Assembly: GCA_016180575.1 (NCBI GenBank)
Contig: JACPAY010000003.1
Coordinates: 106,154-170,153 of the forward strand
From: Candidatus Omnitrophota bacterium
Lineage (GTDB): Bacteria > Omnitrophota > Gorgyraeia > Aquiviventales > Aquiviventaceae
DNA length: 64,000 nucleotides
Direction of reading: 5' to 3'
Part shown: positions 1 to 24,800 of the stretch, in pieces
How positions within the stretch are numbered: the stretch's first letter is position 1
Layout of the letters: the number at the start of each line of letters is the position of its first letter
Notes under the pieces: model-generated
What the model was told of the DNA's origin: nothing
The model's input: the letters and a program-made list of their open reading frames with translations, nothing else
Databases searched by the model: none
Translations under genes and position numbers: made by a program

Positions 1-75
1 GCCCAGCATCGCCAAGAGCCACTCCACACCTGTCCCCACCCCCACGACCGCCACCCGGTCCCCCGGATGAACCTG
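1..75 (-). other. ORF2 start of a further SAM-methyltransferase-like module (cut by the window edge)
   Basis: HPGDRVAVVGVGTGVEWLLAMLG resembles MTase motif I (xVLDxGxGxG). Confidence 0.3.
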
Positions 76-9000: not shown

Positions 9001-12000
9001 CATGTGCGGCATGTAAAAATAATCGCCGAGCAGAATCAATATGTTCGCTGATTCCTCCGTCAGCTTTCTGGGCCCCTCCAGCAGAAGTTGATGTGGCGCG
9101 ATATGGAACACCGCCACTGTTGTCCCGTTACTGTGCTGAATCCGGCTTGCCGGCGCCCATCCCCAGCGATCGATAAAACCGGGAGCCTCGGCCTCCAGTG
9201 GTTCTTGCCGATAGAACGTTAACATCACACCGGTGGATTGCCTCTCCCCTACAGCGAGGTGCTTCCCAAGGCCATTAGGGTCCGTGATCGGTCTCGTCCT
9301 CCATTCGGCATGCCGGTTCATCACCTCAAGCAAGAACGTGTCGACATACACGTCATGCGCCACTCGAGACAGCGCTCCTACGCGGGCATATGAGGTCAAC
9401 TCGCGTTCTTGGTCGAACAGGATGACGCGGGTTGGGGTCCCAAGGAAAAAGAAATAACGTTGCGGGTCGTTCTTCTCGGCCAACGCCATAAACCGATTGC
9501 CCGTATCGCCTGACTTTTCACGTACTCGCTCAAGGACGGCCGGCAGAAAGCTCCATGTGCGTTGAAACGTTTTCGGCAAACCGAACTCGACAGGAGTGAA
9601 TCGAATCTGGCCTCCTGAAGCCGGATACGCGGTGCGGTGACGTTCGTTCGCGACGACCGCTTGACGGATCTTTGGATCGCCGAAATAGTTCAGAAGCACG
9701 CGATCGATGAACGTTTGCACCGCCGGATAACTGAGCATTCGAGACGACGGAATCACCTGACGCGGCTGATCCTCGGCCAGCTGGTCATACGACGATTGGT
9801 GACTCAACGTGTGGTAGAGAAAGAGCTCACGCCCCCGTATGGCAAGCACGAGTGCGTTCGTCGGCTGTTGTCGATCAATGAGTAATCGTATCCGGATTTG
9901 GCCATTGGCCGAGGCGATTTCCGGAATAGTGGAGACCAGGTCGCCCGCTAACCAATGGCCGAATATGACTCGCCACCCACCCAAACGGCACTCCAGTGCC
10001 CTGCGGGCCTGCAATGCGGGTAAGCTCGACGATCGAGTCGGGATCTGGTGCAGCGCGTTGGTGATGGGAGAGAGACGGGATGGAGAAAGCGTCATCGGTG
10101 GTGTGGCGGCAGCGTCAAGCGCCCCAGCGGCGTCATCGAGCGCCTGTTGCAACGTCTTTATCGCTGAAGCAACGTCACCGGTGGCGGGCGGCGCGGCAGC
10201 TGGATCTCTCCCTGAGGGAGGTAAAGGTTGTTTCCGCTGCAGCACCAGCACTGTTATCTCCCATTCCTCAGGTTGAGGATCAGCAATCGTATACGCATAC
10301 TCACTCCTCGCTGGCTCGTCATACTTGATCACCTTTTCCAACCCTAAGCGGTCGAGTGCTGCCTCAAAGGTCACATGGAGCTCGTCCTCCCATTGAGGAT
10401 GCGCAATGACCAAGAGTCCGCCTGGCTTCAAGGCCCGGACAAGCGGGCGGTATCGTCGTCGCAGTGCCGTCGTCTCATCCACCCCCATGTCATGGGCAAG
10501 ACCAGAGGGCGGGTCGAGGGCAAAGCGAGCCACGATGAAATCCAACGAGGATGCTTCGACGTGCTTCGCATAGTCGGTGTAATCGCGCACCTGGTGAAGA
10601 TACGGTCGATCCTGACTGGACGGAACCTCGTCACCCACGCCCTCAATGTCCACGCCCTGTCCTCGCAAAAATTCCAACAACGCTAACGTGTCTCCTCTTG
10701 GGCCTAGCTCGAGACCCTTCAATCCTTTCATTCGCTCAATGCTACCATAGGCTCTTAGCAGCTCTCGGATGATGGGCCGGAAGTACGCAAGGGGCTTGCG
10801 GGGTGTCCCTTGACGGTCAGCCCCCTCGTCTCTCCGCTCATCAGCCAATACGACTCGATCCACTTGTGCCTCAAGAGTCGCGTCTGCGGCGGGCGGCGCG
10901 GCGGGGCGGGCGTTCGACGCGTCAGCCGTCGGCTTGACACCGTCAGCGTCGGATGCTACAGTCGTGGCAGGAGGAGCCGATGAAGACGAAACGGAAGACG
11001 CCGATTCGCGTAACCCTCTTTCCCCAACCGCTTCAGCGGGACTATGACTGGGCATGGGCCCACTATGGCGAGTTGGGGCGACGGTATCCGAACCAATGGG
11101 TGGCGTTTGCTCACCGACGGGTCCTGGCGGCAGGCCCTCGCCTGAATCGGGTGCTGGAGAAAGCGCATCAGCAGGTGGACTGGCCGCATATCCCCCATCT
11201 GTTTGTGGAGTCAGGAATTCATATCTATTATGCGCATCACCCTTGAGGTCCACCGCACGTTGGACCTCGGGGCCAGCCGCACCCACCACCGGCTCTTCCT
11301 GTACCGCCTGCTCACGCGAGTTCGATTCCGCCAAGCCCGTGGCTGGAGCGACTACCATGTGGCGATCCTGGACACCGGCGCCCCCTATTCCCTGCTCCCC
11401 CTCTCGCTGTGGCCCGCCTTGCGTGTCGAGCGCCTCACGACGCTGCCCCTGCGCGGCATCGTCCCCGGCCACACCGCGGAGCTCCGCGCCGATCTGGCCC
11501 GTGTCTCCGGGCGCCTGCTGGATGCCCGCCGTGTCTCCCCGCGCCTGATCCTCTGGGCCATGCTGGCCAGGACCGATGAGGTCCCGCTGATCCTTGGCTG
11601 GGCCGGCTGCCTCGACCGCGCCAGGCTTGGATTGGACGGGCGACGTCGCTCCGCCTGGCTTGAGTTCTAATCCGTCCCTTCCCTCTGCAAGTCTCGCTGT
11701 GCCCCCTACTCCTGGTCCTTCACCTTTTGCTTCGTTTCCGGCGGGCGGCGCGGCAACATGGGGGGTGGACGGCTGGCCGACCGCATCGAGCAGACCGTCC
11801 AGGAACGCGAGGACCGACTCGTGAGCTCGCACATCTGCGGGAGACGCGAACCGAAGCGGCTCCGCGGCGACTGCCTGATAGTCGTCGCGGATGCGGCGGA
11901 GCGCGCCGGCCAGGGCCTCCCGCTCCGCCTGCCGCCCCGCGCCGGCGAAGTGCCGCCGGATGCGGTCGGTGAGGGGGCCCTTGGCATCCCGCCGGATGGC

Positions 12001-12762
12001 GGAGGGCAACTGCTCCACGACCGCGCGATTCGCCGCGTCAGCGGCCCGCTGGAGGGAGCGGGTGACCTCCTCGGTCATCCGCCGGATCTCCTGCATCGGC
12101 ATGCGGCGCATCGTGGCCAACGCGCCGCCCAATGACCCCATCCGCTCGTACGGATCAAACCGGAATCCCGGCTGCTCATGCCAGGCGCGCTCCACCGGAT
12201 AGCCCATCGGATCAGGCGCCGGCCCATCCGGAAGGAACGGCTCAAGGGCGTCTGGCGCGAGCTCCCAGTCCGTTTTTTGGAGGATCGTGAGGCGGGCGGC
12301 ATCGCCCGGCTTCGGCGCCACGAGGACCTGGATCCCGCCGCCGCCGAGCCCGCCGGGCACGGCCAGGCGATGCGCCTCGCGCAGCGCCGCCCGCTGCTGC
12401 TCGGGGGTCACGAAGCGGCCGGCGCCCAGCGCCGCCACCACGACGTGCTGGCTCTGCGGCGGCAGGCTGCTGGCGCCGGCCTGCCGGCTGACCTCCTCCG
12501 TCAGGCCCTGGGCATGCCGGACCGTGAGGCTGAGCTCCCGCAGGGCGGATGACGGCTCGACCTCCGTCAACCGCAGCCTCGAGCCCGCCTTCAGGACGCC
12601 AGGCTCATCGGCCAGACGGACCCATGCCGTCGCCAGCCAGGAGGGGCCGGCGGCGAGCGACGTGATCTGGAGCACGCCGTTAGACTCCAGCCATCCGCTG
12701 GCCTGGAGGGCCTCGACCAGCCTGACGACGGCCCGCTCGTAGGCATGCGCCGTCAGGCCCAT
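1..12762 (-). CDS. Second giant multidomain ORF2, partial (C-terminus beyond the left window edge; at least 4,254 codons in-window)
   Basis: Hand translation of the minus frame whose codons occupy + positions 3k+1..3k+3 found no in-phase TTA/CTA/TCA from 13272 down to 1. The last stop in this frame is the one that ends track ORF 13273..13458(-). ORF2 is absent from the track presumably because its own stop lies left of position 1. The first ATG after the ORF1 stop is 12760-12762 (MGLTAHAYERAVVRLVEALQ...). Minus-codon third positions are 20/20 G/C in sampled lines 12061-12120 and 8581-8640. Caveat: segment 10904-11739 does not look coding on this strand. Confidence 0.7.
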   Translation of the reverse strand, partial: MGLTAHAYERAVVRLVEALQASGWLESNGVLQITSLAAGPSWLATAWVRLADEPGVLKAGSRLRLTEVEPSSALRELSLTVRHAQGLTEEVSRQAGASSLPPQSQHVVVAALGAGRFVTPEQQRAALREAHRLAVPGGLGGGGIQVLVAPKPGDAARLTILQKTDWELAPDALEPFLPDGPAPDPMGYPVERAWHEQPGFRFDPYERMGSLGGALATMRRMPMQEIRRMTEEVTRSLQRAADAANRAVVEQLPSAIRRDAKGPLTDRIRRHFAGAGRQAEREALAGALRRIRDDYQAVAAEPLRFASPADVRAHESVLAFLDGLLDAVGQPSTPHVAAPPAGNEAKGEGPGVGGTARLAEGRDGLELKPGGATSPVQSKPGAVEAAGPAKDQRDLIGPGQHGPEDQARGDTAGIQQAPGDTGQIGAELRGVAGDDAAQGQRREALDTQGGPQREGEQGIGGAGVQDRHMVVAPATGLAESNSREQAVQEEPVVGAAGPEVQRAVDLKGDAHNRYEFLTPQTDGGYAASPPADALSPAPDSGEGLPPGPVGEQTPPIGSDTVAPTRHSGPMPSHSPAEAVGERGLRESASSVSSSSAPPATTVASDADGVKPTADASNARPAAPPAADATLEAQVDRVVLADERRDEGADRQGTPRKPLAYFRPIIRELLRAYGSIERMKGLKGLELGPRGDTLALLEFLRGQGVDIEGVGDEVPSSQDRPYLHQVRDYTDYAKHVEASSLDFIVARFALDPPSGLAHDMGVDETTALRRRYRPLVRALKPGGLLVIAHPQWEDELHVTFEAALDRLGLEKVIKYDEPARSEYAYTIADPQPEEWEITVLVLQRKQPLPPSGRDPAAAPPATGDVASAIKTLQQALDDAAGALDAAATPPMTLSPSRLSPITNALHQIPTRSSSLPALQARRALECRLGGWRVIFGHWLAGDLVSTIPEIASANGQIRIRLLIDRQQPTNALVLAIRGRELFLYHTLSHQSSYDQLAEDQPRQVIPSSRMLSYPAVQTFIDRVLLNYFGDPKIRQAVVANERHRTAYPASGGQIRFTPVEFGLPKTFQRTWSFLPAVLERVREKSGDTGNRFMALAEKNDPQRYFFFLGTPTRVILFDQERELTSYARVGALSRVAHDVYVDTFLLEVMNRHAEWRTRPITDPNGLGKHLAVGERQSTGVMLTFYRQEPLEAEAPGFIDRWGWAPASRIQHSNGTTVAVFHIAPHQLLLEGPRKLTEESANILILLGDYFYMPHMVLDLSSHPLLDPALVTAFGHTPPEGTRQSSKHYVVVETPRRVRAHIDGRWTTRGVSFVVEQGSVWEQLAHRAAAGEDVPELANLESVSKSDRLPAAPPAVENMVSDTDFPPSALERKPFSIREHLEWGVLFGGAAAGLGAVFGIDPSEPITWLTGYAGFAGLLALVTGFLGILGTVWAPQDLPKDPMALAGAVPAWADRDAWQHVQRWQRARGATGWIRLLRQHGELALTAPTTGEMHFVPWLVARSHSRRFAAVRRLLLPLVLAREHDRLLDLAAPTAFLLKPLLLLLDLHDVLFPRRTFLRRLAREAAHHIGGGREPTLVARQMLANYVAQQAARRLVAGRRFRHAAEQAVRFHMDYPHASVQHREFQAGEWSRWYRLNALEQRLLRLSLGLDWPGGTSPDQSAWPAAHDEPGNRTGPHRRLLSLLLIPALLFSYGFAGMAPQDPFADAIVLRLPLEWTAAVLALLVITGFFTHRRNQGKEPLTSLPGWWRGRYVEHESLGMGQVVGAPESRGLQHYLPVEFLEDRQRLTVNSAALSPVPLKDVEQHPHLINAAFVSSLLSVRQLAEALPAPRSSLHSAIRHGRLQPDMMVPQGRHPRSFFDPARVPTLRERFKPLAPKGFVSIEKMAELLGVPAEVLRDAIKRGEVDPPDLVQPHGKRTYQYFRRGRLRALRAVLKPFRLPGFFLASELAGAIGVSEGTILVAMRHQELRPDRIVPRGRHTYYYFSRRRLPAIRKRLTVDAEDLYLASEVARLVGVSPSTMSSAIKDGLKPDRQLKRRKHTHYYFKKERLEEIRALLKRSPPQGQGGAHPLAGTDAPPQARSRAPARYPWDFEHRGADDVLHHPFNPRRSSSMVRFASGADAPSSQAPMDMRRIIKRLLGRLIPTVSSPKLTEALSILWSPAHLGAHWESIAMSLQLMTTRYPSLRFADLAEFKRFLDWVKQLRRAHRGGELTPRLNRLAQRGFAEPRPWNEPPESVHPQRGTTPSALAHLFHGRWAWLKEGKLSGRVPTEPVRWAHFLSGMPWTTRGPPALAGLAVNLLISLPFVLLWALGLIEIAPDSWLAAHLLLNAAVIAAELLAWPLGPSLGVGQEADLRRAWAPDPGGRRRWPAAALAGALTLGLLAYQHVNFSGMPPSPYVPGLLVGWGGLKLQFWLATLLGDYGPGWRVATYIRLLHVGLPLLELTAAWALLKLGLWLRRARQPAPTFVSSAWLGVSAALVLYAVGRPVLDLLAMALDVSPTYYIGYMAAFWWAGIPVGTAPPWRVTLLAALATAGYAGTAYGLVWVGQRGLRLLGSAWRRVRIFTAPLPDGLPPRRPLAVFIVGDDAAVAEHLLRRMQAAINARGKVLIAVPFGETPKPVYKALLEAAASERHAKFPWSQVWLVNVDEYAGLARKDPGSAASQLREELIEPLKRLKRSPLKEEHVHLFKGDRSGLHKEAAEMEAFIREQGGIDIALLGIGRGPAWWLYRSGRWMVAVPGLRVVHAFLLTLFRSIHLGFNETGSPVDSPTRIVRLHPASRRANHVRHDFAVTLGLGTLRDAREVIVIAKGEHKRSAVDLAVRGPVSLGIPAGLLQRAAGEVTVFVDEEAAPPGVGQPYEAPLPSPVPETPATEEEAPLDPVALMNAAVAVLNREDAAPEELEQALALAQQALQMVEGAPGRVELPAVICLYNIGLVCMRLDRLEDAKDALKRAEQQGRAIPLDVNARLNIWLRLGSVFAALGEDEAAEERFQMVREAAEGLLANKPTRPKGPGRDIPKAQWDVIRRGHVEERNRLLDVVRDRLAEAERLSAMLREAQAEEAEPPPVPEPAPAPLMVRPAPPLLETLREASVPPNSIRLIKETPEQLREVFEAIRPAPMPPARLLAESVGPPEPLMLRPALTVLESLSQAPPPPAWALELQTAGTLEQLQEALEAGQPPRVPPDRLLGEPAMEGPEARERRVIEEQLGFSLGDGGLFERLRDQTEGVADYAELIRSDPSLASDEAKREMLGELLGATAPAPAVAAAPAGEGTVTVSLTPPKGKFPGLRPLSRTTRDEIGGKISVRPPLHPGGKAAVRDILGDVRRALTGHKEREALARDLADGQGRLREPHLFLGEMDVTSEPDRLVSAKKTLTLMVEEGARGGKRVALLGTAAALIPAVLDDPAWILWGIAADLAAWGVGAWLTSWARYRQEDSPPARAYKRIKAAFEAAEPGTRIALELTHAELGIASSLAQQLGFEYQGAIGKGQHLYIKKRSEGQGPSEPPMATAAWAHAPKALPESLSGAAPGLYIGEAPADRLRMEELADLRAQAFAVSQGERTGLTLRGRAISLTVRRLSAGERELVALLPAGWGGAAGLSDDALGALLQEALDGVPAAERAQLDPAQPLLVLPARHLIGEDGTDHLAGDHIQNGLLVLHETLPKVRRDLNAARYPLGDAFCNVLLRHELRHEATGLSGEAVEERFALDDAQQLAASLHRYLPLAEAADLLLSRGLLSYPFYTRLTRGRDLEVARRSLHLAWVEHPPKVGRDQLGWLLWGWTWVYQLAVRWWLVRVRGLGHLPLPKSQRFLIASNHLLYGFEGAVIASEVVLRDGRFPRFLANPSQYRLGRLAQWLTNWGGAVVISSPREAMQTVLAHLRQPGAVVGFFPAGRPYPSLDEDLRHWKTGVVRAARQAGVPIVPAYVSLRLGLRPVTIAFGPPIDSTDAQGRDKSADELLREVKEAVRHLASPSFRLEAKDVPPELTRLASARFLETPVFVPASFWEAEQAFDVTVMDLPWGLLRDVKPRYLSYVKTVLSLRQAWTSRALTRGEVRRLRQSLDELRRALAQDGVQHEVSQSVRDQAMKLLLALRTAEPRLYGVEGPADEPLEVIGIVDREERLYVPQSPARYVRADDPRARLAVGDPQLTKTRFICVRPWEMEGDLATRVIPGRPMETVRVPLSDHSAITVRVASQEYDRLRHETWDVLLASVFASPIVFLRREDEERLRLLAHEALNALQVHPGDRVAVVGVGTGVEWLLAMLG
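940..1400 (-). other. ORF2 PlsC/LPLAT-like acyltransferase module
   Basis: FLIASNHLLYGFEG is an NHxxxx block with the usual Asp not in register. VVGFFPAGRPYPS corresponds to the FPEGTR block. AARQAGVPIVPAYV corresponds to the PIVPV block. Confidence 0.45.
1590..1910 (-). other. ORF2 HExxH module (fourth copy of the ORF1 A/B/C family, shorter)
   Basis: GDHIQNGLLVLHETL...FCNVLLRHELRHEATG...EAVEERFALDDAQQLAASLHRY. The LLRHExxH core (1711-1750) and the preceding DH...LH block parallel ORF1 modules A-C. Confidence 0.45.
3790..4110 (-). other. ORF2 TPR-like repeats
   Basis: AVICLYNIGLVCMRLDRLEDAKDALKRAEQ and NARLNIWLRLGSVFAALGEDEAAEERFQMV fit the 34-aa TPR pattern. Confidence 0.5.
4225..5040 (-). 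other. ORF2 NagB / 6-phosphogluconolactonase-family (sugar-phosphate isomerase/deaminase) module with an insertion
   Basis: VLIAVPFGETPKPVYKALL; WLVNVDEYAGL; GGIDIALLGIG, then a ~33-aa insert, then IHLGFNETGSP; then AVTLGLGTLRDAREVIVIAKGEHKRSAV...GIPAGLLQ...VTVFVDEEAA. The order and spacing follow the NagB/Pgl family. Confidence 0.6.
5100..5930 (-). other. ORF2 polytopic membrane region
   Basis: Hydrophobic helices LAGLAVNLLISLPFVLLWALGLIEIA, WLAAHLLLNAAVIAAELLAW, LAGALTLGLLAY, LLELTAAWALLKLGLWL, AWLGVSAALVLYAV, YYIGYMAAFWWAGIPVG and VTLLAALATAGYAGTAYGLVWVG. Confidence 0.55.
6601..7320 (-). other. ORF2 four tandem 60-aa helix-turn-helix (excisionase/MerR HTH_17-like) repeats, period exactly 180 nt
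   Basis: R1 is LLSVRQLAEALPAPRSSLHSAIRHGRL...SFFDPARV. R2 is FVSIEKMAELLGVPAEVLRDAIKRGEV...TYQYFRRGRL. R3 is FFLASELAGAIGVSEGTILVAMRHQEL...HTYYYFSRRRL. R4 is LYLASEVARLVGVSPSTMSSAIKDGLK...HTHYYFKKERL. Confidence 0.6.
8704..8719. repeat. 16-nt direct repeat, copy A (GGCGGGCGGCGCGGCA)
   Basis: Exact 16-mer, read in the ORF2 frame as A-A-P-P-A (context SDRLPAAPPAVENM). Confidence 0.85.
8720..10182 (-). other. ORF2 cassette 1: ~490-aa module of unknown function, lower GC
   Basis: Protein-like translation (…RYFFFLGTPTRVILFDQERELTSYARVG…ANILILLGDYFYMPHMVLDL…) with no family recognised. It is bounded exactly by repeat copies B and A. Confidence 0.4.
10183..10198. repeat. 16-nt direct repeat, copy B (GGCGGGCGGCGCGGCA)
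   Basis: Exact 16-mer, 1479 nt (493 codons) from copy A. Context in ORF2 is RDPAAAPPATGD. Confidence 0.85.
10199..10887 (-). other. ORF2 cassette 2: class I SAM-methyltransferase-like module, lower GC
   Basis: LKGLELGPRGDTLALLEF is motif-I-like. SSLDFIVARFAL and RALKPGGLLVIAHP follow. The module is bounded exactly by repeat copies C and B. Confidence 0.5.
10888..10903. repeat. 16-nt direct repeat, copy C (GGCGGGCGGCGCGGCG, 15/16)
   Basis: 15/16 identity, with G instead of A at the last base. It lies 705 nt (235 codons) from copy B. Context in ORF2 is ARPAAPPAADA. Confidence 0.8.
10934..10962 (+). promoter_or_regulatory. Sigma70-like promoter for the + strand two-gene cassette
   Basis: TTGACA (10934-10939), a 17-nt spacer, then TACAGT (10957-10962), immediately upstream of the AGGAGG/ATG of the DUF5678-like gene. 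Confidence 0.4.
10969..10974 (+). promoter_or_regulatory. Shine-Dalgarno site (AGGAGG)
   Basis: Perfect AGGAGG located 5 nt upstream of ATG 10980. Confidence 0.5.
10980..11246 (+). CDS. Small DUF5678-like protein (88 aa from the preferred start)
   Basis: Track ORF 10953..11246. The in-frame ATG at 10980 is preceded by AGGAGG (10969-10974) with a 5-nt spacer. The sequence MKTKRKTPIRVTLFPQPLQRDYDWAWAHYGELGRRYPNQWVAFAHRRVLAAGPRLNRVLEKAHQQ... fits the small DUF5678-type pattern. Stop TGA is at 11244-11246. Third-position G/C is clearly higher on this strand than on the antisense ORF2 frame. Confidence 0.55.
   Translation: MKTKRKTPIRVTLFPQPLQRDYDWAWAHYGELGRRYPNQWVAFAHRRVLAAGPRLNRVLEKAHQQVDWPHIPHLFVESGIHIYYAHHP
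11230..11670 (+). CDS. Retropepsin-like (clan AA) aspartic peptidase
   Basis: Track ORF 11203..11670 starts at TTG; the internal ATG at 11230 (MRITLEVHR...) is preferred and overlaps the upstream gene by 17 nt. It carries the D-T-G-A active-site motif in hydrophobic context (HVAILDTGAPYSLLP) and a C-terminal LILGWAGCLDRARL pattern typical of single-domain retropepsins. In lines 11341-11460 the + third positions are 18/20 and 19/20 G/C, against 12/20 and 14/20 for the antisense frame. Stop TAA is at 11668-11670. Confidence 0.55.
   Translation: MRITLEVHRTLDLGASRTHHRLFLYRLLTRVRFRQARGWSDYHVAILDTGAPYSLLPLSLWPALRVERLTTLPLRGIVPGHTAELRADLARVSGRLLDARRVSPRLILWAMLARTDEVPLILGWAGCLDRARLGLDGRRRSAWLEF
11740..11755. 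repeat. 16-nt direct repeat, copy D (GGCGGGCGGCGCGGCA)
   Basis: Exact 16-mer, 852 nt (284 codons) from copy C. Context in ORF2 is TPHVAAPPAGNE. Confidence 0.85.
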
Positions 12763-12805
12763 CCCGAGCCGGACCTGCGCCTCAGTGCGTTCGACGAGCC
12801 CGCTG

Positions 12806-15800
12806 TCAACGCACCTCCTCGTCGTAGAGGGCATGCCGGACGATCGAATCTCGGAAGACGTCAAGCGGCTCTCCCAGCCGCTCCGCCGACGCCCGGACAT
12901 CGCCCTCGGCGGCCCGCAGCGCCTCCACTCGCGCAGCGACCGCCCGCTGAACCTCCGCAAGTTCGGTGGCATAGTCGCGCACCTGCTGGAACCGCCACAG
13001 GCCGGGATGATCCGGATAGGGGGCAAACCGATAGACCCGCTTGACGCTGTCCGGCCGCCACTCGCTTGCCTGGGTCGTCCACACCACGTCTTCCCCAAGC
13101 CCAGGATCGAACCGCTTCACAACCCTCGCGACCCCTGGCTGGAACGCGCCAGTATGCAGCGAGGTTCTGAGGTCGCTCCTGCCGAGATGGAACCACAGCC
13201 TCCCATGACCTGTGGTGGGCACCTGGAAGTCGAGGTCGGGAAACAGCCCCGGCCGCCTGGCATCCGGGCTGGTCAGCTGGGCGCGCAGGGCGCGCATCCC
13301 CAATTCGCTCTCGGTCGGCTGGGGGGCCGCGGGCTCCTCGGCGGCCGGCGGCTCCTCTGCTGCCAACGCAAGAGGTTCGGGCGCGGCGGCGGGTTCCGGC
13401 GCCGCGGGCTCAGGCGCGCGGGCATCCGCCGGCGCGGGCGCCGTCGGGCCTGCCTCATTGAGCAGCTGCCGCAAATACGGTTCCCGCTGGATCGCTTCCT
13501 GCATCAGCCGATCGAACCAGAGGCTCTTCGCGGACCGCCCGTCTTCCTCCGTCATCAACAGCGCCAGGCCCTTGGCCAGCGCGACGCTGTTATAGAGCCC
13601 ATGGACGAAGACGTTGGCGGCCACGGCTCCCAACAGCCGGATGAGACCAGGCGGGAGGCTCGGGAGCTCGATGACATTTGCCAGCGCCTCATAGCCCGCC
13701 ACGCCGAACAACGCGCCCGCAACCGTGGCCGCGGCGATGAGGCCGAACCCGATCCAGCGCTGGCGTCGGGCCATTGCGACGCGCTCTCTGGCCTCCCGCG
13801 CGGCGTCCCAGAGCCGATCGACCGCCGCGTCCCGCAACGATCGGGGGGCGCCGGCCAGGTAGAGGGCGACGTGAAGCTGGACATCCCAGAGATCCAGTCG
13901 AGGATGCAGCAACAGGAAGACTTGCGCGAGCTTCTCCGCCTCCTCGACGCTGAGCCCCGGCAGGGTTTCCTGCAGGGTTCGAGCTAGATCGGTGAGAGGC
14001 TTCCCCAATGGATGCGCATTGAGGTAGCGCCCGCCGGTGAAGGTGGCCATGTGCCAGATGGTCCGCGGGAACTCGATGAGCGCCGCGAACCACACGGCGA
14101 TCAACTGGACCCAGGCAGACCACGCCGCCACCTCCGCCGGCAGCGGCCGGCCGGCCCGCGCGAAGAGCCAGCCTGCCAGGAGCCGGAATGCGGTCACGCT
14201 CCCCGGAAGCATGAGGATCGGTGGAGCGGATTCTGCGGCAGATGGACGGACGTCGATGCGCACGCGGGCGCTGACCCGCTCACCGGGAGCCAGGATGACC
14301 GGCGTGGACTCGCCGAGGCCGGCTGCATGGAGGTTCATCGCATCGGTCGCGGACGTCTGGGGCTCGACCGAAACAAACTCCTCGCCCTCCGGCACCCACA
14401 CGACCGTATGGGTGAAGAGCGGATCCTGCCGGATCTCGACGCGGCGCCCTTGCGGGTCCTCCAGCACCGAGACGATCTCCCCCTGTTCATCCGGCTGCAA
14501 CCGGGTGAAAACATGGTCTAGGCTGCGGCCCTCCAGGAGGGTTAGGGCGCGCAGGTCCCACGACGTGCCTTCGACCGGTACAGGCGCCTGCGGCAGCGGC
14601 ATCCGCTCGGCGTCCGCCTGCCAGACCGAGGCGCCGGGCACCGCGAGCCGCCAGCGTCCCCGGTCGGGCGTCCGAAACCAGGGATGGAACCCGAAGCTCG
14701 CGACGCGCCGCCGCCGCACATCGTCATTGACCACCTCCACCTCGATCGCGAGCCCGCTGCTCGTGACGCGATACGTGAGCGTCGGATGCAGCGGGCCGAA
14801 GAACCGCGCCATCTCCTGGGCGCTCTCCGGCGTCAGGGCCAGGCGAATGAAGCTCCCCTGCGCATCCTGTCCGGATTCGAGCACGGTCCAGCGGGCGCGC
14901 ATGGCCATCCCGTGCAGCGCATGCGGACCCAGCATCCGCACCAGCGGAGAACCCCTGACGTCCACATGCTCGCCGTCGAAGGTGAACTGCCCATTGCCGA
15001 GCCGGTTCGCCCAGGGCCCCAGGAACGGCAGGCCGCCGTCCTCGGCGAGGTCATCAGGCTGATGCAGCAGCTCCACCCCATCGACCACGAAGGAGGTCAC
15101 CTTCCCGCCGAGCTCCGGCGCCACTTCGATAAACGTCCGGCCGGTCGGATCGGCCGCGCGGATGACCGCGCGTCCCCCCAGCCACTGGCGCCAGGCGGCA
15201 CGGTCTTCAGCCGGCACGCCGAGGCTGTCCAACAGCTGCCCGCGCGCCGCCTCGGTCGGCAGCCGGAAGCTCACCGGAATGGGAACGCGCGGCTCTGCCA
15301 CCTCCAGCAGCCAGCCGAGATAGCTGCGCATCGACTCCAGCGCATTCTGGCGAGCCGCGTCCTCCAATGCGGAGAACTTGCGGAGACCCTTGAAGGTCTC
15401 GCTGTAGCCCTCCAGAGGCTGAAGGAGCCTGATGCGGACCTCCTCGATCGGTTGTCCGCGGAACTCCAGCGGCGTCTTCAGCGCAAGCTGGAGGAGCCGG
15501 TCCTCCGGGAATGCCACCTGGCGCACCTCGCTGGACCGCAGCGCCCGCACGTGAGCGGTCAAGAAGTCGCGCAGCGATGCCACCGCCGCCTCCCTGGTCT
15601 CATCCGGCACAAGGCCCCAGGCGCCAAGGCGCTCATCCTGTTCCGCGCTCTCCGAGGTCACGCTCAAGATGATCCGCTCTTCCGGCTGCCGCCGGCTGAA
15701 CGACTCACGCAGGGCGGACGGCAGGTCGTCCCCCGCCGCAATGACGAAGGCCTGAGGTTGGGGTGCGGCGGGCGGAGGCTGAGGCGCCGCGACCGGCTCA

Positions 15801-18800
15801 TGAACGGGACGCACGCGCTTGCGGTCCCACGCCGCAGCTTGAGCGGCCTGGCGTGCGCGCGCCACGCGCCGCCGCCAGGCGCGGAGGCCGACCGCCGCCA
15901 CGGCCAATCCGGCTCCACCCAGCAGCGTCCCCTGCCACTCATCCCACCACGTCGTATCTGACGAGGGCAGCGGCTGGCGGACCGGAGGCCCCGGCTGGCC
16001 TCGCGGGATTACCACCCCAGGCGCTGGCGGCTCCGGCGTCGCCCGTAACCCGCGAGGCGCCTGAGGGGCTGCGGGCGGCGCCTGGCGCTGCTCCCAACTC
16101 CGCAGGTCGGCGGCCAACTGCTCCCGGTGGCGTGTCAGCTCTGCGACGAACTCCGGCGAGCGCGCCAGGACCGCCTCGATCGCCTGGAGCTCGCGTTCCC
16201 TCCTCATGATCTCAATGGTGAATGCCGGCTGGGGATTCTGTGCAGCGGCGATTCGCAGCGCCTCCAATGTCGAGCGGTTGACCTCGCGCTGCTGCACGTG
16301 CCGGATGACGCGGTCCGTCAGGTCCAGGCTGCGGCGATACGCCAGCGGGGTTTCCTTCGCCAATTGCCCCATCTCATTTGCGCGGCTCCGAAGCTCCAAG
16401 AGCACCATGTGAAAGCCCCGGATCACATCCGCGGCCAGATGGGAGTCGCTGTCAAACGCTTCGGGATGGAGGATGAGGACCCGCTGGCGCGGATCGGACA
16501 CGCCAGGGACCAGCACCCCGACATGTCCCTGCCCGCCCTGAAGGGGGTTCGCCGTGCCCGGGAGCATGCCCTCGCGGGCTTGGTGCGCCAGCAGATCGCC
16601 CTTCTCTAACCGGAATGGCACGGGTCCGGAGAGCACTCTGGAGTCGGCAGGGTCGAGCAGCGGCTCAACCAATCGCCAGATCCGGTCAAACCGCCGCAGA
16701 TCGTTGTCGCTGAACCCAGGCCCCAGCGGCAGCTGAAGCTGCGCCTCGCTCCGACCGGCTCCCGCCAGCCCCGCCGCGACCGCTCCACCGACGAAACTCA
16801 GGAACTTCCGGCGCGTCCAGCGACCGGGGAGTGGCTGCGCGGCGGCGGAGCCCCGCCTGGCCACAACCAAGAGGAGTGCCAGGAGCACCCCATCAAGTGC
16901 CAGGCCGAGCCACGGGTGCCCCACCGCGATGCCGGCCGCGAAGAAGAGACCGAGGGCTTTTTTGCCCGGCAGGCGCGGCGGGGGTGAGGCATCGTCGGCG
17001 CTTGGTGGAAGCGTCCATTCCAGGTCCAAGCCGCGTCCCGATAATGAGATCACGGTCAACTGGTACACCCCAGGAACGTCCGTCTTGGAGACGGAGAGCT
17101 CGAAGCGTCCAACGACCGCGAGGGGCTCATTGAACCTGAATGGTTTGCCCGGATCGTCCGGCTGGATCGCCCGAGTTGTCGGATAGAGGCGGAACCAGGG
17201 CACGCCGCCCTGCATCCAGACCCGGTAGCGATGCTCGCCCATTGTCAGCAGCACGTCCTGCTTGCCGTCGAAGAGAATGGTCTGGACCGGCTCGAGGTCT
17301 TCCGTCCCGCCCACCCTGGCCACGCGCGAGCGGCCCATCCAGGCCAGCAGCGGGAAACCCCTGTTCCCTCGCTTATGCCGCTCCACGATTCCGTGGATCA
17401 GCGGGCGCTCGCGCTCCATCGCCTGGCGGGCGAGCGACAGCGGCACCTCCTCGAACGCCCCCTCCTTGCTGTGATGACGGATCACCGTCAGACCATTGAA
17501 CGCCTCCTCCTCGGTCAAGAGCCGCTCGGCGAGCAAGGCCGCCTCGGCGGAGGGCGAGTTCCGCGCCGGATGCGCGGCATGCCACAGCTCCTGGGCAGCG
17601 AGGTACTGCCGATAGTCAGCGTAGGGATGGCCGTCGCGCACGAACACCGGTGCGCCACCGGGATTCGCATCGCCTTGGAGGTGGAAGTGTTCGTGTTCGA
17701 GCACCCCCTCCGTGAGGTTGGCAGTGTGGTCCGGATGGTCCACCACGAACCGCAGGAGATGGCGCGGAAGGAAGATGGTCGGCTGGCCTTCCCCGCGGCT
17801 GCGCTGCTGGCTGCCGGCATGCGCGAGCAGCTCTCCGCGCTGAAACGCCTGATGCGGCCCTATCCCAATCACGTACCGGTACTGCCAGAGGCCGTGGCGG
17901 TTCGAGTAGCGGATGGCGTCTCTTAAGAGCGTCAATTCCTGGTGGAGCGCCGCCCCCGTCAGCTTCAGGAGGTCGGCAAGGTCCCGCTGCGCATTCGGGC
18001 CCAGCTCCAAGCGGCCCTGGAAACCCTCCAGCAGCCTGGCAGCTTGCTCCTCATCGGTTATGGGGTTGAAGTAGTAGTCGAGGTCGTGCGCGGAAAAGTC
18101 AATGGCGACCGCCTCGCCCACCTCAATCTCCTGGCTCCAGATCTCATTGACTTGTTCATGCGGCAGATCGGCCAGGCTCTTTTCGCTGCCGGCGGAGCGC
18201 AGCATCTCCTCGACCTCATGGTCTATCACCGTCGTCTGCAGCACCCGCAGGGCTTCCCATGCCGCCCGCTGGACGGCCGGATCCCGATCCTCCATGGCCT
18301 CCTCCAGGAGCGGCAGCACCTCAGGATGCCGCCGTCCCAAGAGGCCGGCCACCGCCTCCAGACGGACATCCGCATCTTTATCCATCAGCGCCCAGCGCAG
18401 CCGTGCGATCACGCGTGAATCGCGCATCGTCCCCAACAACTGCACCGCGGTCTTCCGCACGCTCGCGTCAGGATCTGTCCGGATGGCCCGTCCCAGCTCG
18501 TTGATCGCGTCCTCCGCCGCCTCTTCGCCGCCCAGCTTCACAAGCGCGCGCGCCGCCTCACGCCGGACGGCAGGATCAGCGGCGTGGTTCCTCAGGGCGC
18601 GCGCATAGCTTTGCTGAAGCCAGCCAATCACCAATGGCTGCAGCCGGTTGCCTGAGTGGAACCTGGCAGCGGCCTCCAGGCGGCTCGACGGATCCCGGAA
18701 CCAGTCCAGCTGGTGGAAGAGCTCCGGCAGATCGGTCATCTTGTAGCTGGTCGGCGCCCGGTCCGCCGCAGCCCGGAGCGCGTCGCGGATGGCGCTGGGG

Positions 18801-21800
18801 GGCAGGCCGGCGATGCCGGCGAACAGCGCGACCACCGCGTCCTCCATGCCCGGGACCGCGCCGTTGGCGTGCCGCACGCGCCCCGTCCCTCCGGTGGTGA
18901 AAAATGGTGAAGATTCGAACCGGCCCAGACCAGCAATCACTCGTCGCTCATCGATCTTCCTGCGCGTCTGTGGGTCGACCGGCACCGTCGGGTCCACCCA
19001 GACGACGAGATTGCCTTGTTCGTCATAGAACGCGCTCCCCTCTTTGTGGTCGAGGAACCTGCGCATGCGGGGGAATCGAAACTCCGCCCCCCGGTACAGC
19101 TCGTCGAACTGCTCTTGCGCATGCAACAGCGCTCCTGGATCTCGCCGCTGCTCAAGCTCCTCATACGACAGGAGGGGACGACCTCCGGCGAACACAGAAG
19201 CTTTCTGTTGCCTCAGCCGGCCCACCCCCCCGGGGAGGACCGAGGTCTCCGGGACGGGGTAGCCGGCCTTCCGCAACCGCTGGTTGTCCTCAACGATCCG
19301 GTCGCGCAGCGCATCGCGTTCGGCGTCGCTGACCGCCATCACGCCCCCTAACAGCGGGCGGACCTCTTTCACCACGTCGTCGCCGGCATCGTACACGGTC
19401 ACAAACCACCCCTCGGCCATGGGAACCGCCGCGATCGCTGAGACAGGCGAGGCCGCCATATCCTCCGGGCCGCCAAGCGGCGTTGATGGCGGTGCCCCTT
19501 GGGCGCGCCTGAACCACCGGGGCAGCCACGCCATCGCGATGACGAGCAGCGCGTCGACCGCCAGCCCGAGCCCGACCGGCCACCAGGCGTCGAGGCCCGC
19601 CGCGTAGAACCCGCCGATGAGCGTGCCGACCGGGGCCAAGACGCGGAGGCCCGCCACGAGCGCCAGCTGCTGGATGAGGCCGCCCAGCCAAGTCCACAGG
19701 TTTCCGAGTGCAGGGCGAGGCGACTGGTTGACATCCGCCAGCTTGACCTTTCCGATGAGAAAGCGCTCCACGAACGCTCCCTCAGCGGAGGCGCGCCGCC
19801 TGGCGAGCTGCTCCGCCATCTCGGCGTATTCTTTGCGCGCCTGCTGGCTCTCATACCGGCGGATGGCTGCCGCCTTCTGCCTCATCTGGGGCTCATCGAA
19901 GAGGTAGTGGAGGTTCGGGGCCAGGTACTGGTCTTCAAACCCTCGGACGCCTTCGTAGAACACGACCGTGGCGTTCGGCGCATAGCGGGCGATGGCTTGG
20001 AGAAAGAGCGTCGTGAACAGCCGATGCTGGGGGTGGAGGTCGAAGGGAGCGTACAGGAAGAACGCCAGAGCGTGGCCGCCGTGAGCTTGCGCCAGGCGCC
20101 GCACGTAGCCGTCGATGCGCTGGCGATCAGCCGCGCTCAGGCTCGTCCACTGGCTGAAATGGAGGTCCAGCCCGCCATCGGAAAACCGCACCAGGCGCTC
20201 CAGGCTCTGGATCAAGCCGAGGTTCTTGTAGTTATCGTCGGGGACGCCCAGCTCATTGGCCCCGTCGTCATTCTCTTTGCGGCGCTGCATCCGCTTCTGT
20301 TCCTCGGTGGGAGACGGGGTCCCGTATTTCTCCCGAAGGAACTGGTCGGTGACGCCGGCTTCATCCCAGAACCCGGTCACCATCAACGCGCCCTCGAATG
20401 CCGGAGGGATGGCGCTCCGCCGGCGCAACCATGACAACGTCCACGAGCCTGGTTGCCGCTCCGATGGCGCCTGTTCATCCGGCTCGACCGGATGTCCCGC
20501 CGCTGTCAGGATGCGGGCCGCCGCCCCGAACCCGATGGCCACGTCATCCCCATGCGGCTCGGTGAACACGAGCTGCTTGCCCCTGAAGAAACGCTCGAGT
20601 TCCTCGGGCGTCTGGATGACCGAAACCCCAGGGTCTGCGCGGAATTCAACGCCATTCACGAGCAGTCGATTCGCAAGGGAGAGCTGTCCTTGCATCCCGC
20701 GGCCCTGGCGGTCTCCGAGGCGCTCGAGCGCCTGGTCGTCCGCCGTCAGCGGCCCCCCAACCTCGCGGGCGCGCTTCCCATAGCCGTAGATGAGCTTGTG
20801 CTCGTTCACCTCATGGCGCACCGGCTCGCCCATCGCCGGATCGCGTCCGGAGATGGCCACCACTACTTGGCCCGCATCGGTGAACCGCCTCGAGTAGGTC
20901 CAGCCGTTCACGCTGAGCGTTGCCGATGTTCGGGTGTCGGAAGCGATGGGTAAGCGCCATGCCAGCCACGCGTGAAACAGCTCATGGTGCAGCCACTTCG
21001 GGCTGTAGAGGAGGACTTCATGCAGATACAGCCGCTCAGCCGTCGCATAGCCGAGGAGGAGCGCCCGGCCATTCGTCCCGCGGGGCGGAGCACCGCGGAG
21101 GATTCGGATGGCAGCTACATTGAAGTTCTTGGCGAACGTGCCAACTTCTTGCAGCAGCGGACGATAGGGGGCCGGGACGGCTTCACCCCTGCCCCCCTCG
21201 TCGAACGCCCAGCGCAGCGACTGGAGATGCTGGGTGAGCTGCCGGAGCTCATGGGCATCCGGCTCAGCCGCCACCAAATCGACGGGGATCTGCTTTCCCG
21301 TGGACACCCCAGCTTCGTCCAGCGGTTCCAGGCGACCGATCAGATGCCCGCGGCTCTCCCGCATCTCCCGAACGTGGACGCGTCCGACGGTTCCCCCATC
21401 CGAAGGTAGCGCTACCTTTTCCTCGTCAGAAACATCGCCGGGCGAGGAGGACTCGCCACCCCCCGGCAGCGCGGCCTGCCGTCCCACGACCTCTGTGTCG
21501 CGCAGCCTCCCCTCGACAGCATCGCCGGCGGGTGGGGGAGGCTCCGGGGAGGCCGGTGGCTGCACGTCACCGTGCTCCTCCAGCACGCGCTTGGTCTCTG
21601 CAGTGCGCTCGACGGCGTCCCGATAGAGGTCGAGGATGCCCTCCTCCTGGCCGCCCGGAATGTCCTCGGCAAAGCTGGGGACCAGGCGGCCGGTGAAGGC
21701 TGCGCGGATGTCGTAGACGAGCGCCGTGTAATAGATCCAGCGCCTGACGGCGCGCGGCCATGCCGGATCCTGCCGCCGATACCGGCCCGCCTCCTCCTTC

Positions 21801-24800
21801 AGGAGCTCATAGAAGTTGATCGCCTCCTGGTCGAGGTACGATTGGCGCAGCGCGGCGTTGTCCCGAAGCTTAGCCGGCCAAGCATCCGGGTGGTCTTGGG
21901 GCACGCCGGCGACCGACCGCTTCCTCCCGTTGAGCCCGTCTCGGACCCCGCTGGAGGACCAGCCATCCCCCCCGGGCGCGGCGTCGATCTGGCCTTTGGC
22001 GGTCTTCATCCCGCTCGTGCCGGACGCTTCCCGGGGGCGCTTGGGGGTATTCAGCCAGGCATCGGCACCTCGGACAAGGTACTGCGACTTCGTCTCGTCG
22101 TAGCCCTCCAGGAAGACCACGCGGTCCTGGATCTCCGGGTGATCCTCGGAGAGCCGGTCGATGACCCGATGCAGCAGCGCGACGTTCGAGCGGCCGTCCT
22201 CCGAGAAGGTCTTGCCCGCCATCACCACCTGGACCCCCTCGTTCACGATGAGCTCGATGAACGGGTCGAAGGCGCCGCGGGCCTTCATCTGCGCGATCAG
22301 CTCGTCCATCTGCTGGGGCGTGAGCGCCCGGTCGCCGCTGAGGCGGGATTCCACCTCGGGCAGATGCCGCCCGAACACGATGAAGAGCATCCGCTTGTAG
22401 TTGACGATGCGGCGGGCCCAGACCGCCAGGAACCGGTCCGGGTCCAGGAGCCGGATCAGCTCGCTTCGCTCAAGCCGCGCCTTGTAGGCCGGATGCTCCT
22501 CCAGCGGTCGCGATTCCCATTCCGTCACCCACCGTTCCGGATCCTCGATGCCGGCCCACCGAGCCCAGCGCACCCTCAGGGCGTGCAGCCGCTGCATGTA
22601 GTCCTGCTGTCGAGGTTGCTCACGCAGGAGCGCCTCCAGCGCTACGCTGTTGCGAAGGTACTGCCGGCGCACCGTCTCGCGCACCATGTCGATCGCCTTC
22701 ACTCTGTATTGCCGGAGGAGTTCCCTGAGCGCCGCATCGCTCAGCGCCGGCGGCTGCGAGCCGTCAAGCGAGGGGGGCAGCGGTTGGCCGGGATGGAGGA
22801 GCTCAAACAGCTCCCTGACCAAGGGGTCCGCCGGGTCGAGGATGGCCTCCGGGGTCCTGGCGGAGGGGTCGGCCTGGCTCCAGCGCATCAGCCGGCTGAT
22901 CTCCGGAATCATCCAGAAGAGATGATCCACACCGTTCGTCACCCCGATGACCGGCCGTCGGGAGATTTCCTCTGGGGTCAGGACTCGCTCCGCCACCAGG
23001 TAGTCGCCCGCCTTGAGCGCGTTCAGCTGGCTCACGGCCGCGATGGCGCCCCCGTAGTCGTACGCCAACCGCGCCATGAACCGAAGCGGCGAGTGGTGGC
23101 CCCAGGGGTCGCGGAAGTGTGGCAGCAGACGCTCCCGGCCCGCCGCCTGCTTGCCCTCAATCAACCACTGGGCGACGTTCCCGGCCTGCGCGCGGACCTC
23201 CTCCTTCGGCGATTGCTCAAGATACCGACGGATGTAGTCGCCCAGCCGCACCGTGGCATCGTTGAAATGGTCGATGCCGGCGTTTTCCAGCGTGTGCATG
23301 AAGAAGACGAGCTGTCCGCCGATGAGCCCAAGCGCTTCCTCGTAGGTGTAGCCCTCCTCCATGTAGCCGCGGAGGAGGCCGATGAGATAGGGGAAAGTTC
23401 CCGTCTCGTTGACATGGACCGGACCGTCCTGAGGCAGCCCAAGCCGCGCGCGGAACTCATAGGCGGCCAGGCCGATGACCCACTCCTGCTCAAACCGATG
23501 CAGCGACGAGTTGTGGCCTTTGTAGAGCTCCTCGAGGATGTAGCGGACCGCCGGGTGGTTTTTGTCAAAGTCCGTCGTGGGCATCGGCACCCGGATGCCG
23601 CCGACCTCGACGAGACGGTAGCGCACGTAGACCGGATCGCCGGATTCATAGAGGCGGATCGCCGCTTCCAGCGGTTCAGAGGGGTTCCGCGGATCGGTGA
23701 AGAAGTCGATGCCGTGGTCCTGCGGCCGGAGGACCTGGCGCGCACCCGCATCCGGATAGCCCAGGTCATTCACCTGCGACACCGGCACGCCTCGCTGGTA
23801 GTCCGGAATAAATGGCAGGAACTCCGGAGTATCCGAGCGCGGATTCAACGTGGTGACTCCGCCCAGGTAGTTGAGGCCGCGCACCCACTCCCCGAAGAGC
23901 ACCCCTAGGCCGCCCACGTAGCTGCTCAGGCGCGGGCCCTCATCCTCCTCGACCCCGCTGACGATCCCCTCCAAGCTGAGCAGGATAGGCGGATGGCCGA
24001 TGAGCTCAGGGGACCGCTGCCGCAGCCACTCGCTCGCCCCGTCATCCGCCGCCTGGGTCTTGTGGGACCGGGAATCGAAGTCGACCGCGACTCCCTCACC
24101 AGTCATCGCCCCTGAACGGCCCTGGCGCAGGAGCGCCTGGGCTTGCTGAAAGAGTTTGGGGTCATCTGGGATGCGGCGCAGCGATGGATCAGCCGCGTCT
24201 TCCTTGAACCAGAGCCCGTATTGAAAGGCCGAAGGGAACTGGATCGTCACCTGCGCGTAGGGGCCGTTCACGACGTACACCTGATGCCAGACATTCGGGC
24301 GCATCACGACCATCTGACCCGGCTCAAGCACCAAAAGGGACGGTCGATACATGAGGGTCCCGTGGGCGCGCTCCGCACGTACGAGGAGGAGCCCGAGCGT
24401 GCCGCGCAAGGCGATGTAGACTTCGGTCTGGGAGGCGGAAGAGCCACGGTGCTGGCGGATGGGGTGGGTGTGCAACCGCTCAATGGGCCGGATGACCTGC
24501 GCAAAGTTCATCCCCTGCTCCGCGTGCGGGGATGACGAGAATAGGGCGCTGATCCGCGGAGGCGCCGGGGCCCCTTGGCCGGGGAATGTCGTGGAGTCAA
24601 TCATGGCCTCCGTCCCTTGAGCCAAGTTCCAGAGGTTGCGGCGCGCCGCCAAAGCGTAGACGACGACCCCATTGCGCTCCCAGACCCTGCCAGTCGTGTT
24701 GAACCCCCTGGAGGCGAACTCCCCGTGGGAGGGCCCGTATGGCTCATACCACGCCGGATCGTGTTGCGTCGTCACCACGACCACGTCCCCTTGCTCGACC

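Follow-up and report, generated by a model that had tools for sequence, protein, structure and literature searches.

Deep inside ORF1, an open reading frame (ORF) on the minus strand that encodes a membrane-threaded multi-enzyme megaprotein of 17,046 amino acids (aa), lies a segment that closely resembles a twin-arginine translocation (Tat) leader. ORF1 was found in a 64,000-nucleotide (nt) stretch of DNA from a Candidatus Omnitrophota bacterium (assembly GCA_016180575.1, contig JACPAY010000003.1, positions 106,154 to 170,153), and this whole stretch is referred to as the window. Judged from its sequence, the leader may have been retained as the working first element of a portable three-part cassette and act as an internal start-transfer signal in ORF1, a proposal to which we assign an even chance of being right. 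The cassette would consist of a twin-arginine leader with a weakly hydrophobic core, a domain of 200-270 aa with the signature HPEAF...HL.AD, and a membrane helix with a basic cluster behind it. Such a layout would correspond to that of a Tat-dependent tail-anchored exported protein, which most likely entered ORF1 via gene fusion. The features concerned are listed below in the order of the reading frame, with window coordinates followed by ORF1 residues.

12806..63946, minus strand: ORF1, the 17,046-aa megaprotein, without internal stop
16859..16957, minus strand: hydrophobic hairpin (plausible) ALGLFFAAGIAVG-HP-WLGLALDGVLLALLLVVA, residues 15664-15696; 33 residues, with KK before and RR after
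16817..16858, minus strand: Arg-rich loop RRGSAAAQPLPGRW, residues 15697-15710; 14 aa, net charge +6 when counted through the leader TRRK
16742..16816, minus strand: Tat-type leader TRRKFLSFVGGAVAAGLAGAGRSEA, residues 15711-15735; n-region TRRKFL, 17-residue Gly/Ala-rich h-region, c-region R-S-E-A
16082..16741, minus strand: conserved domain, residues 15736-15955; motifs RFxxxW, I/L-HPEAFxxDxHLxAD, LxxxDR and SW
15932..16081, minus strand: Pro-rich linker, residues 15956-16005, ending in the acidic/aromatic SSDTTWWDEWQ; putative end of the outer-face loop
15875..15931, minus strand: second membrane helix GTLLGGAGLAVAAVGLRAW, residues 16006-16024; putative stop-transfer
15851..15874, minus strand: basic cluster RRRVARAR, residues 16025-16032; putative cytoplasmic flank
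14255..15118, minus strand: aldose 1-epimerase domain, residues 16277-16564 (PF01263, E 2.2e-31), downstream of the cassette

The internal leader and its homologues

The leader peptide is present exactly as the initial annotation had written it, and, as claimed, it does lie more than 15,000 residues away from the N-terminus: it begins at residue 15711 of 17046 in an uninterrupted frame, and is thus not at the N-terminus of the translated protein. All specified positions of the S/T-R-R-x-F-L-K consensus are matched by its TRRKFLS, apart from the final K. The core, FLSFVGGAVAAGLAGAG, consists of 17 uncharged, Gly/Ala-rich residues with a Hessa sum of +2.7, and its 19-mer value of +6.15 puts the h-region among the least hydrophobic candidate segments of ORF1, compared to -4 to +2.5 for clear transmembrane (TM) helices; these Hessa sums are crude and position-independent. 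A single positive charge, R15732, is located directly behind the core and is followed by S-E-A. The leader had also been described as following a TM pair. There is indeed a hydrophobic stretch at residues 15664-15696, but it is a single 33-residue run, interrupted by Gly-His-Pro and an Asp and with crude Hessa 19-mer sums of +4.2 and +2.5, and a short helical hairpin is plausible on the basis of the hydropathy scans.

As a stand-in for TatP/SignalP, we used the NCBIfam hidden Markov model (HMM) TIGR01409 (TAT_signal_seq), which has a curated cut-off of 16.7 bits. The excised native 60-aa leader segment scored 21.1 bits (E 2.9e-4), and none of the 8 other RR plus hydrophobic segments of ORF1 gave a match. 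When an artificial Met start was added to the leader segment, the score dropped to 14.3 bits. The pattern [ST]RRxFL occurs once in ORF1. In residue shuffles of ORF1, this bare motif appeared in 136 of 2,000 cases (6.8%), and the motif together with an uncharged hydrophobic run of at least 13 residues in 7 (0.35%). The description of the segment as a textbook twin-arginine leader therefore stands, and in terms of sequence it is a very good Tat-type leader, more than a helix with preceding arginines.

An exhaustive phmmer search of 1.84 billion representative proteins returned only two homologues, P0006 (E 7e-7) and P0007 (E 1.5e-4), both of which are singleton clusters:

L001, 10001-12268, on a 23-kb metagenome contig: P0006, 755 aa, GC 54%
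L002, 9-15551, filling a 15.7-kb contig: P0007, a giant of 5,180 aa, unrelated to ORF1 outside the cassette

In both proteins the similarity begins at their own leader (P0006 ..SR-MSRRQFWGLAALGALAMAAAEPALGA.., P0007 ..NG-MSRRSLLKLFAASVLAWMMPSDISRAA..), and in both a Met directly precedes S-R-R. The RR is invariant in all three sequences, with the consensus [ST]RRx[FL][LW], and the distance from [ST]RR to RFxxxW is 41, 39 and 40 residues in ORF1, P0006 and P0007, respectively. Arg makes up only 3.4% and 6.5% of the two homologues, in which Lys is as abundant as Arg, and an [ST]RR at the matched position would arise by chance with probabilities of 8.5e-4 and 2.1e-3, jointly ~2e-6. At 26-40% sequence identity, the three proteins still have the RR, its spacing and the hydrophobic run in common, and the three-sequence alignments contain ~28 invariant positions in the domain behind the leader, including I/L-HPEAFxxDxHLxAD; the ORF1 domain has a lineage-specific helical insert of ~40 aa. 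Since the RR and its spacing are conserved in both homologues, the leader is an integral and conserved part of a small portable cassette. A chance resemblance in a very long Arg/Ala/Gly/Leu-rich ORF has 17,046 residues and the 6.8% of shuffles with the bare hexapeptide in its favour; against this, motif and h-region coincide in only 0.35% of shuffles, the HMM score exceeds its curated cut-off, and the motif recurs at matching spacing in both homologues, which makes chance an extremely improbable explanation that can be set aside.

Each of the three proteins contains one copy of the cassette domain (hmmsearch). We considered whether the two giants have more in common, but the cassette is the sole region matched between ORF1 and P0007 by blastp. 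In P0006, the domain is followed by a strongly hydrophobic helix, YVITASVALSAAVAGWIIF, and then by RRK and a Lys-rich tail. P0007 also contains Bac_transf, HATPase_c, HEAT_2, DUF218 and LpxC domains, indicating a multi-enzyme giant. No other relatives were found. When 5.8e9 proteins were searched via a word index, the 421-aa region gave no match, the C-terminal 2,246 aa retrieved HEAT-repeat matches only, and a three-sequence profile retrieved none; this index also missed P0006 and P0007 and is evidently blind to the family. Back-translated pattern scans of genome, metagenome and viral contigs yielded no confirmed relatives, and tblastn against plasmids no match. The domain itself matched nothing in Pfam and NCBIfam at E <= 10 or in a profile search of the PDB, and a Foldseek search of the PDB with two AlphaFold2 models (predicted local distance difference test scores of 70 and 64) gave nothing below E 0.1, only generic helical bundles. 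Its invariant His, Asp and Glu residues may bind a metal, which would account for a requirement of export in the folded state. The three sequences constitute a previously undescribed domain family. The HPEAF domain was also considered as a degenerate copy of the HExxH (SprT-like?) modules found elsewhere in ORF1, and this was rejected (hhalign probability 0.1%; SprT-like only at E 0.26).

Both homologues have further peculiarities. P0006 apparently consists of three exported units fused in frame, each starting with Met and a signal-like segment: MPRNLIRAFAFLLIPCLVADPALASC, with a lipobox-like LASC; MSRRQFWGLAALG..., the RR leader; and MLIAVLQMAMLFANLSLSVLMAGC, with a textbook lipobox (residues ~374-399). 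The internal ATGs are not preceded by visible ribosome-binding sites. P0007 contains 19 S-S-P motifs, mostly [QS]SSSP[VIL], about every 250 residues at apparent module boundaries, one of them 8 residues before the RR leader. This motif might serve as a linker or mark a site of modification or cleavage; no recurrent linker resembling SSSP[VI] was found in ORF1.

Topology, translocation route and origin

The net charge is +6 for the loop through TRRK and 0 for the 15 residues after the leader. It is -3 for the 15 residues before the helix at 16006-16024, where there is a Trp-rich belt, and +5 for the 15 residues behind it. Because of this charge series (+6, leader, 0, -3, helix, +5), we propose the following topology under the positive-inside rule, using our own hydropathy and charge counts rather than a dedicated predictor. 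The Arg-rich loop after the upstream hairpin would remain cytoplasmic, the leader would span the membrane N-in/C-out, acting as start-transfer, and the ~270-aa domain would come to lie at the outer face. Followed by RRRVARAR, the helix at 16006-16024 would then be a stop-transfer that returns the chain to the cytoplasm, and the aldose-epimerase domain would follow on the cytoplasmic side. Free-standing aldose epimerases are usually cytoplasmic.

By which machinery the leader would be inserted is a separate question. On sequence grounds, involvement of Tat is plausible, at roughly even odds with simple insertion via the Sec (general secretory) pathway/YidC. In a more specific and rather doubtful scenario, Sec would insert the hairpin and the weakly hydrophobic RR helix would pass to TatBC, whereupon Tat would move the folded ~270-aa internal loop and halt at the downstream helix, while the ~15,700 residues before and the ~1,000 after the loop would stay in the cytoplasm and membrane. 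If true, this would mean Tat-mediated translocation of an internal loop and giant proteins that are threaded by two translocases. To our knowledge, the described Tat-dependent membrane proteins all have the Tat-handled helix first or last, and the use of Tat proposed here would be unprecedented in form.

Several points weigh against a working internal signal. We know of no characterised Tat substrate with at least three hydrophobic segments and 1,311 residues after the RR helix; in ORF1, the leader is followed by hydrophobic segments at 16006-24, 16577-95, 16606-24 and 16732-50. There is no TatA or TatC Pfam domain in ORF1 and in ORF2, the adjoining giant ORF, and neither the PDB profile search nor Foldseek yielded an assignable cofactor- or metal-binding fold for the domain. 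All of the evidence is computational, and the conservation argument is based on three sequences in all, two of which, P0006 and P0007, are 40% identical and thus not independent. The homologue leaders are also weaker in TIGR01409: P0006 stays below the cut-off with 13.2 bits, and no match is obtained for P0007. Moreover, the leader core of P0007 contains a Lys, and a hydropathy scan found no nearby downstream membrane helix in this protein. The P0007 element may not be membrane-spanning, and the topological argument holds for two of the three proteins.

Some of these points would suit the view, expressed in the initial annotation, that the leader is a fossil: the non-functional, decaying N-terminus of a once free-standing Tat substrate, with a domain that stays cytoplasmic. 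The leader lies 15,710 residues into the protein, no upstream start codon with a ribosome-binding site was found, its h-region lacks the hydrophobicity for confident Sec insertion, the P0007 equivalent has the Lys in its core and no second helix nearby, and M-S-R-R in both homologues resembles a frozen N-terminus. However, a relic is expected to be degraded, and of the three copies, that of ORF1 matches Tat best and scores above the curated cut-off. RR motif, weak h-region, flanking charges and downstream stop-transfer helix are all retained in ORF1; the RR, spacing and hydrophobic run are preserved despite the divergence of the three sequences; and a stop-transfer helix with a basic cluster and charge asymmetry is hard to explain without a membrane crossing. 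In composition, the cassette has become fully like the host gene, which points to an old acquisition, and an old leader that is not under selection should have decayed. For this reason, and because the leader is embedded in a coherent start-transfer/stop-transfer layout, we prefer the term retained topogenic signal and consider a fossil unlikely.

The leader might also be an ordinary TM helix inserted by Sec/YidC, its arginines being positive-inside residues and its Tat likeness without mechanistic or historical meaning. ORF1 contains 10.1% Arg, RR or RRR flanks several other helices of this protein, and a looser pattern (RR, any residue, hydrophobic pair, uncharged run) was common in the shuffles (1,202 of 2,000). 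Also, the giant-protein literature treats internal signal-peptide calls as artefacts and suppresses them (10.64898/2026.06.07.730766). What speaks against a plain helix is that the full [ST]RRx[FL][LW] is conserved and not charge alone, even in the two Arg-poor homologues, that TIGR01409 accepts the leader and none of the eight RR-flanked control helices, and that a core much less hydrophobic than the clear TM helices, with a directly following Arg, disfavours Sec insertion (PMC5449189). Taken together, this makes a plain Sec helix distinctly unlikely.

Finally, the leader could become a true N-terminus, either by an internal start or by an upstream cut, giving a Tat substrate of ~1,330 aa; in a related scheme, signal peptidase would cleave after R-S-E-A and split the megaprotein, as in viral polyproteins. 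There are in-frame GTG/TTG codons 16-36 codons upstream, of which the GTG at window position 16864 is 16 codons away, and S-E-A is compatible with the small-residue -3/-1 rule of signal peptidase I. ORF1 has more HExxH motifs than expected (6 vs 0.57), including one that lies 293 residues upstream of the leader, hinting at zincin-like protease modules, and other work has proposed that giant proteins are processed (10.1101/2023.11.21.568195). On the other hand, no promoter-like (sigma-70-like) site was found in 16500-17800 and no Shine-Dalgarno-like sequence before the candidate starts, the HExxH modules have no above-threshold match among peptidase families, and there is no conservation around the putative cleavage site across the three homologues. 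The suggestion that internal processing re-exposes the leader thus found no support, and we regard these two related schemes, taken together, as very improbable.

What remains of the original interpretation is the fusion origin. Derivation of the cassette from a tail-anchored exported protein of Tat type by fusion has support: the cassette recurs in the smaller P0006, a Met precedes SRR in both homologues, and ORF1 and ORF2 are mosaics. The Met before S-R-R in P0006 and P0007 fits a former translation start, and counts as one observation rather than two because of the 40% identity of these proteins. The stand-alone Tat substrate that had been anticipated among the homologues was not found in verified form; P0006 comes nearest, with its leader at residue 84 of the called gene and no recognisable ribosome-binding site at either ATG. 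We also considered a recent insertion. At 0.80-0.81, the third-codon-position GC content (GC3) of the cassette is not anomalous for the C-terminal third of ORF1 around it (0.81-0.84), and no direct repeats flank the cassette; the fusion is therefore old.

If a Tat-type leader does open an internal loop in a 17,046-aa protein, this would extend the reach of Tat or of the Sec/Tat hand-over, and it would bear on how bacterial giant proteins thread through the membrane. It would also bear on the origin of such proteins, since the evidence points to the capture of whole exported-protein cassettes, signals included. With ~330 residues, the cassette is small enough to be transferred into established E. 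coli reporter assays without culturing the source organism.

The host gene and its neighbour

ORF1 has codon-position GC1/2/3 values of 0.74/0.49/0.87, the pattern of a coding sequence, in DNA with a G+C content of 69%. Hydropathy scans revealed ~30 hydrophobic segments, which are clustered. Pfam matches are OEP, Fucose_pyrophosphorylase/NTP_transferase, Glyco_transf_5 plus GT1, DUF4922, HEAT_2 and Aldose_epim, and the protein is a mosaic in which a TolC-like OEP, a nucleotidyl-transferase, a glycogen-synthase-like GT5/GT1, DUF4922, HEAT repeats and an aldose epimerase, each normally an independent protein, are joined. It is adjoined by a second giant ORF:

1..12762, minus strand: ORF2, at least 4,254 aa, beginning ~44 nt after the ORF1 stop and continuing past the window edge

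The open frame of ORF2 covers window positions 1-13116 on the minus strand, with a likely start ATG at 12762, and its coding GC signature is the same as that of ORF1. ORF2 contains Glucosamine_iso/6PGL, Acyltransferase, HTH_17 plus MerR_1 and TPR domains, and ~10 clustered hydrophobic segments. In the two ORFs, enzymes and even HTH/MerR regulators that are normally free-standing are joined into mosaics, and DNA-binding HTH domains are an odd component of a membrane megaprotein such as ORF2. Plus-strand ORFs in window positions 1-12800 (e.g., 2791-4476, 4510-5814 and 10953-11670) were considered as real flanking genes and rejected, being antisense to ORF2 with Arg-rich, implausible translations, and are taken to be high-GC artefacts. 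No Rfam family was detected anywhere in the window.

The OEP domain of ORF1 (residues ~2655-2779, window ~55610-55984; three matched stretches, E 1.6e-14) is TolC-like and lies within a helix-rich region (~1900-3400) that is flanked by an N-terminal TM cluster (47-295) and a hydrophobic segment at 6093, so that an outer-membrane-type domain and inner-membrane-type helices occur in the same protein. ORF1 also contains internal repeats. A module of ~230 aa, containing LLRHExxHLLYHL, is present three times (residues 8279-8539, 9273-9533 and 10247-10472; window ~38330-39110, ~35348-36128 and ~32531-33206) with 40-53% identity, and a module of ~135 aa twice (residues 9848-9977 and 10472-10604) with 44% identity. 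The six HExxH motifs are located at residues 8448, 9444, 10387, 11302, 14321 and 15418, three of them within the ~230-aa module, and have similar contexts (hydrophobic-hydrophobic-x-HExxH-hydrophobic); one more is found at ORF2 residue 3679. These modules may be zincin-like and perhaps self-processing; none matched a peptidase family above threshold, the best being Pfam SprT-like at E 0.26 for one repeat. Along ORF1, GC3 decreases from 0.89-0.92 (residues 1000-8000) to 0.79-0.84 (residues 12000-17046), perhaps because the fused parts differ in age or source.

Comparison with known systems

The closest known case is that of dual Sec/Tat-inserted proteins such as the actinobacterial Rieske protein. 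The Streptomyces Rieske protein, with two Sec helices followed by an RR helix, is the founding case (PMC3471235; PMC13186574), and the polytopic families of this type comprise Rieske Sco2149/QcrA, the heme-molybdenum cofactor protein Sco3746, the MLMS-1 polyferredoxin and long YkuE-like phosphoesterases (PMC3471235, PMC5449189). In these proteins, a consensus RR directly precedes a helix of low hydrophobicity with a positive predicted delta-G, this helix carries a positive charge at its C-terminal end, and the preceding loop has at least 8 residues, the minimum for Tat recognition reported in Sco2149; together, these features abort Sec insertion and pass the helix to Tat (Tooke 2017, PMC5449189). 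The RR motif of ORF1 comes directly before its helix and after a Sec-type hairpin, comparable to TMD1-2 (TM domains 1 and 2) of Sco2149; the helix is weakly hydrophobic with an Arg at its C-terminal end, the loop of 14 aa exceeds 8, and the motif is conserved. However, the known families have the RR helix last, followed by a C-terminal cofactor domain, whereas the RR helix of ORF1 is not the last, its ~270-aa domain has no recognisable cofactor fold and is followed by a helix, the epimerase domain and further helices, and the host protein has 17,046 aa. By this analogy, the ORF1 segment, which shares every local feature of these proteins and departs from their global architecture, may work alike without being a member of the group.

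At the level of the cassette, the layout is that of Tat tail-anchored proteins of the E. coli HybO/HyaA/FdnH type, in which a Tat-type leader precedes a globular domain and then a single helix with basic residues behind it. This group includes members without cofactor (Gallego-Parrilla 2024, PMC10924467). Its members are free-standing, with an N-terminal leader and a short cytoplasmic tail, whereas the ORF1 cassette is embedded, with 15,710 residues before and ~1,000 after it. The tail-anchor architecture is thus seen in the cassettes of ORF1 and P0006 and not as a free-standing protein, and no sequence similarity of the cassette to any described member was found.

The host protein resembles the membrane-threaded multi-enzyme giants of Omnitrophota, 'Archaeovorins' and others (West-Roberts 2023, 10.1101/2023.11.21.568195; 10.64898/2026.06.07.730766). 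Like the Omnitrophota giants, ORF1 exceeds 10,000 aa, has clustered TM segments and an adjoining second giant gene, and contains enzyme domains of sugar metabolism (epimerase, isomerase, nucleotidyl- and glycosyl-transferases). Most full-length Omnitrophota giants contain a divergent SecA DEAD domain, whereas ORF1 and ORF2 have no SecA_DEAD match at E <= 0.01; C39/S8 peptidase domains were not detected in the two ORFs either. The term 'twin-arginine' is not mentioned in these two giant-protein papers (10.1101/2023.11.21.568195, 10.64898/2026.06.07.730766). None of the top full-text literature matches paired it with 'giant protein'.

In Flaviviridae polyproteins, internal signal sequences set the alternating topology at the eukaryotic endoplasmic reticulum (ER)/Sec61 and are cleavable by signal peptidase. 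ORF1 likewise has a signal-like segment deep in a very long protein, and R-S-E-A|Q fits the -3/-1 rule. In contrast to the ER/Sec61 signals, its leader is Tat-type, and cleavage after R-S-E-A would be compatible with the sequence.

It is established that polytopic proteins can contain internal Tat signals, and which features free these signals from Sec (PMC5449189, PMC3471235, PMC13186574). Such signals come from few families, where they always precede the last helix. Going by its sequence, what would be new in ORF1 is an internal Tat-type signal that opens an internal loop of a giant polytopic protein.

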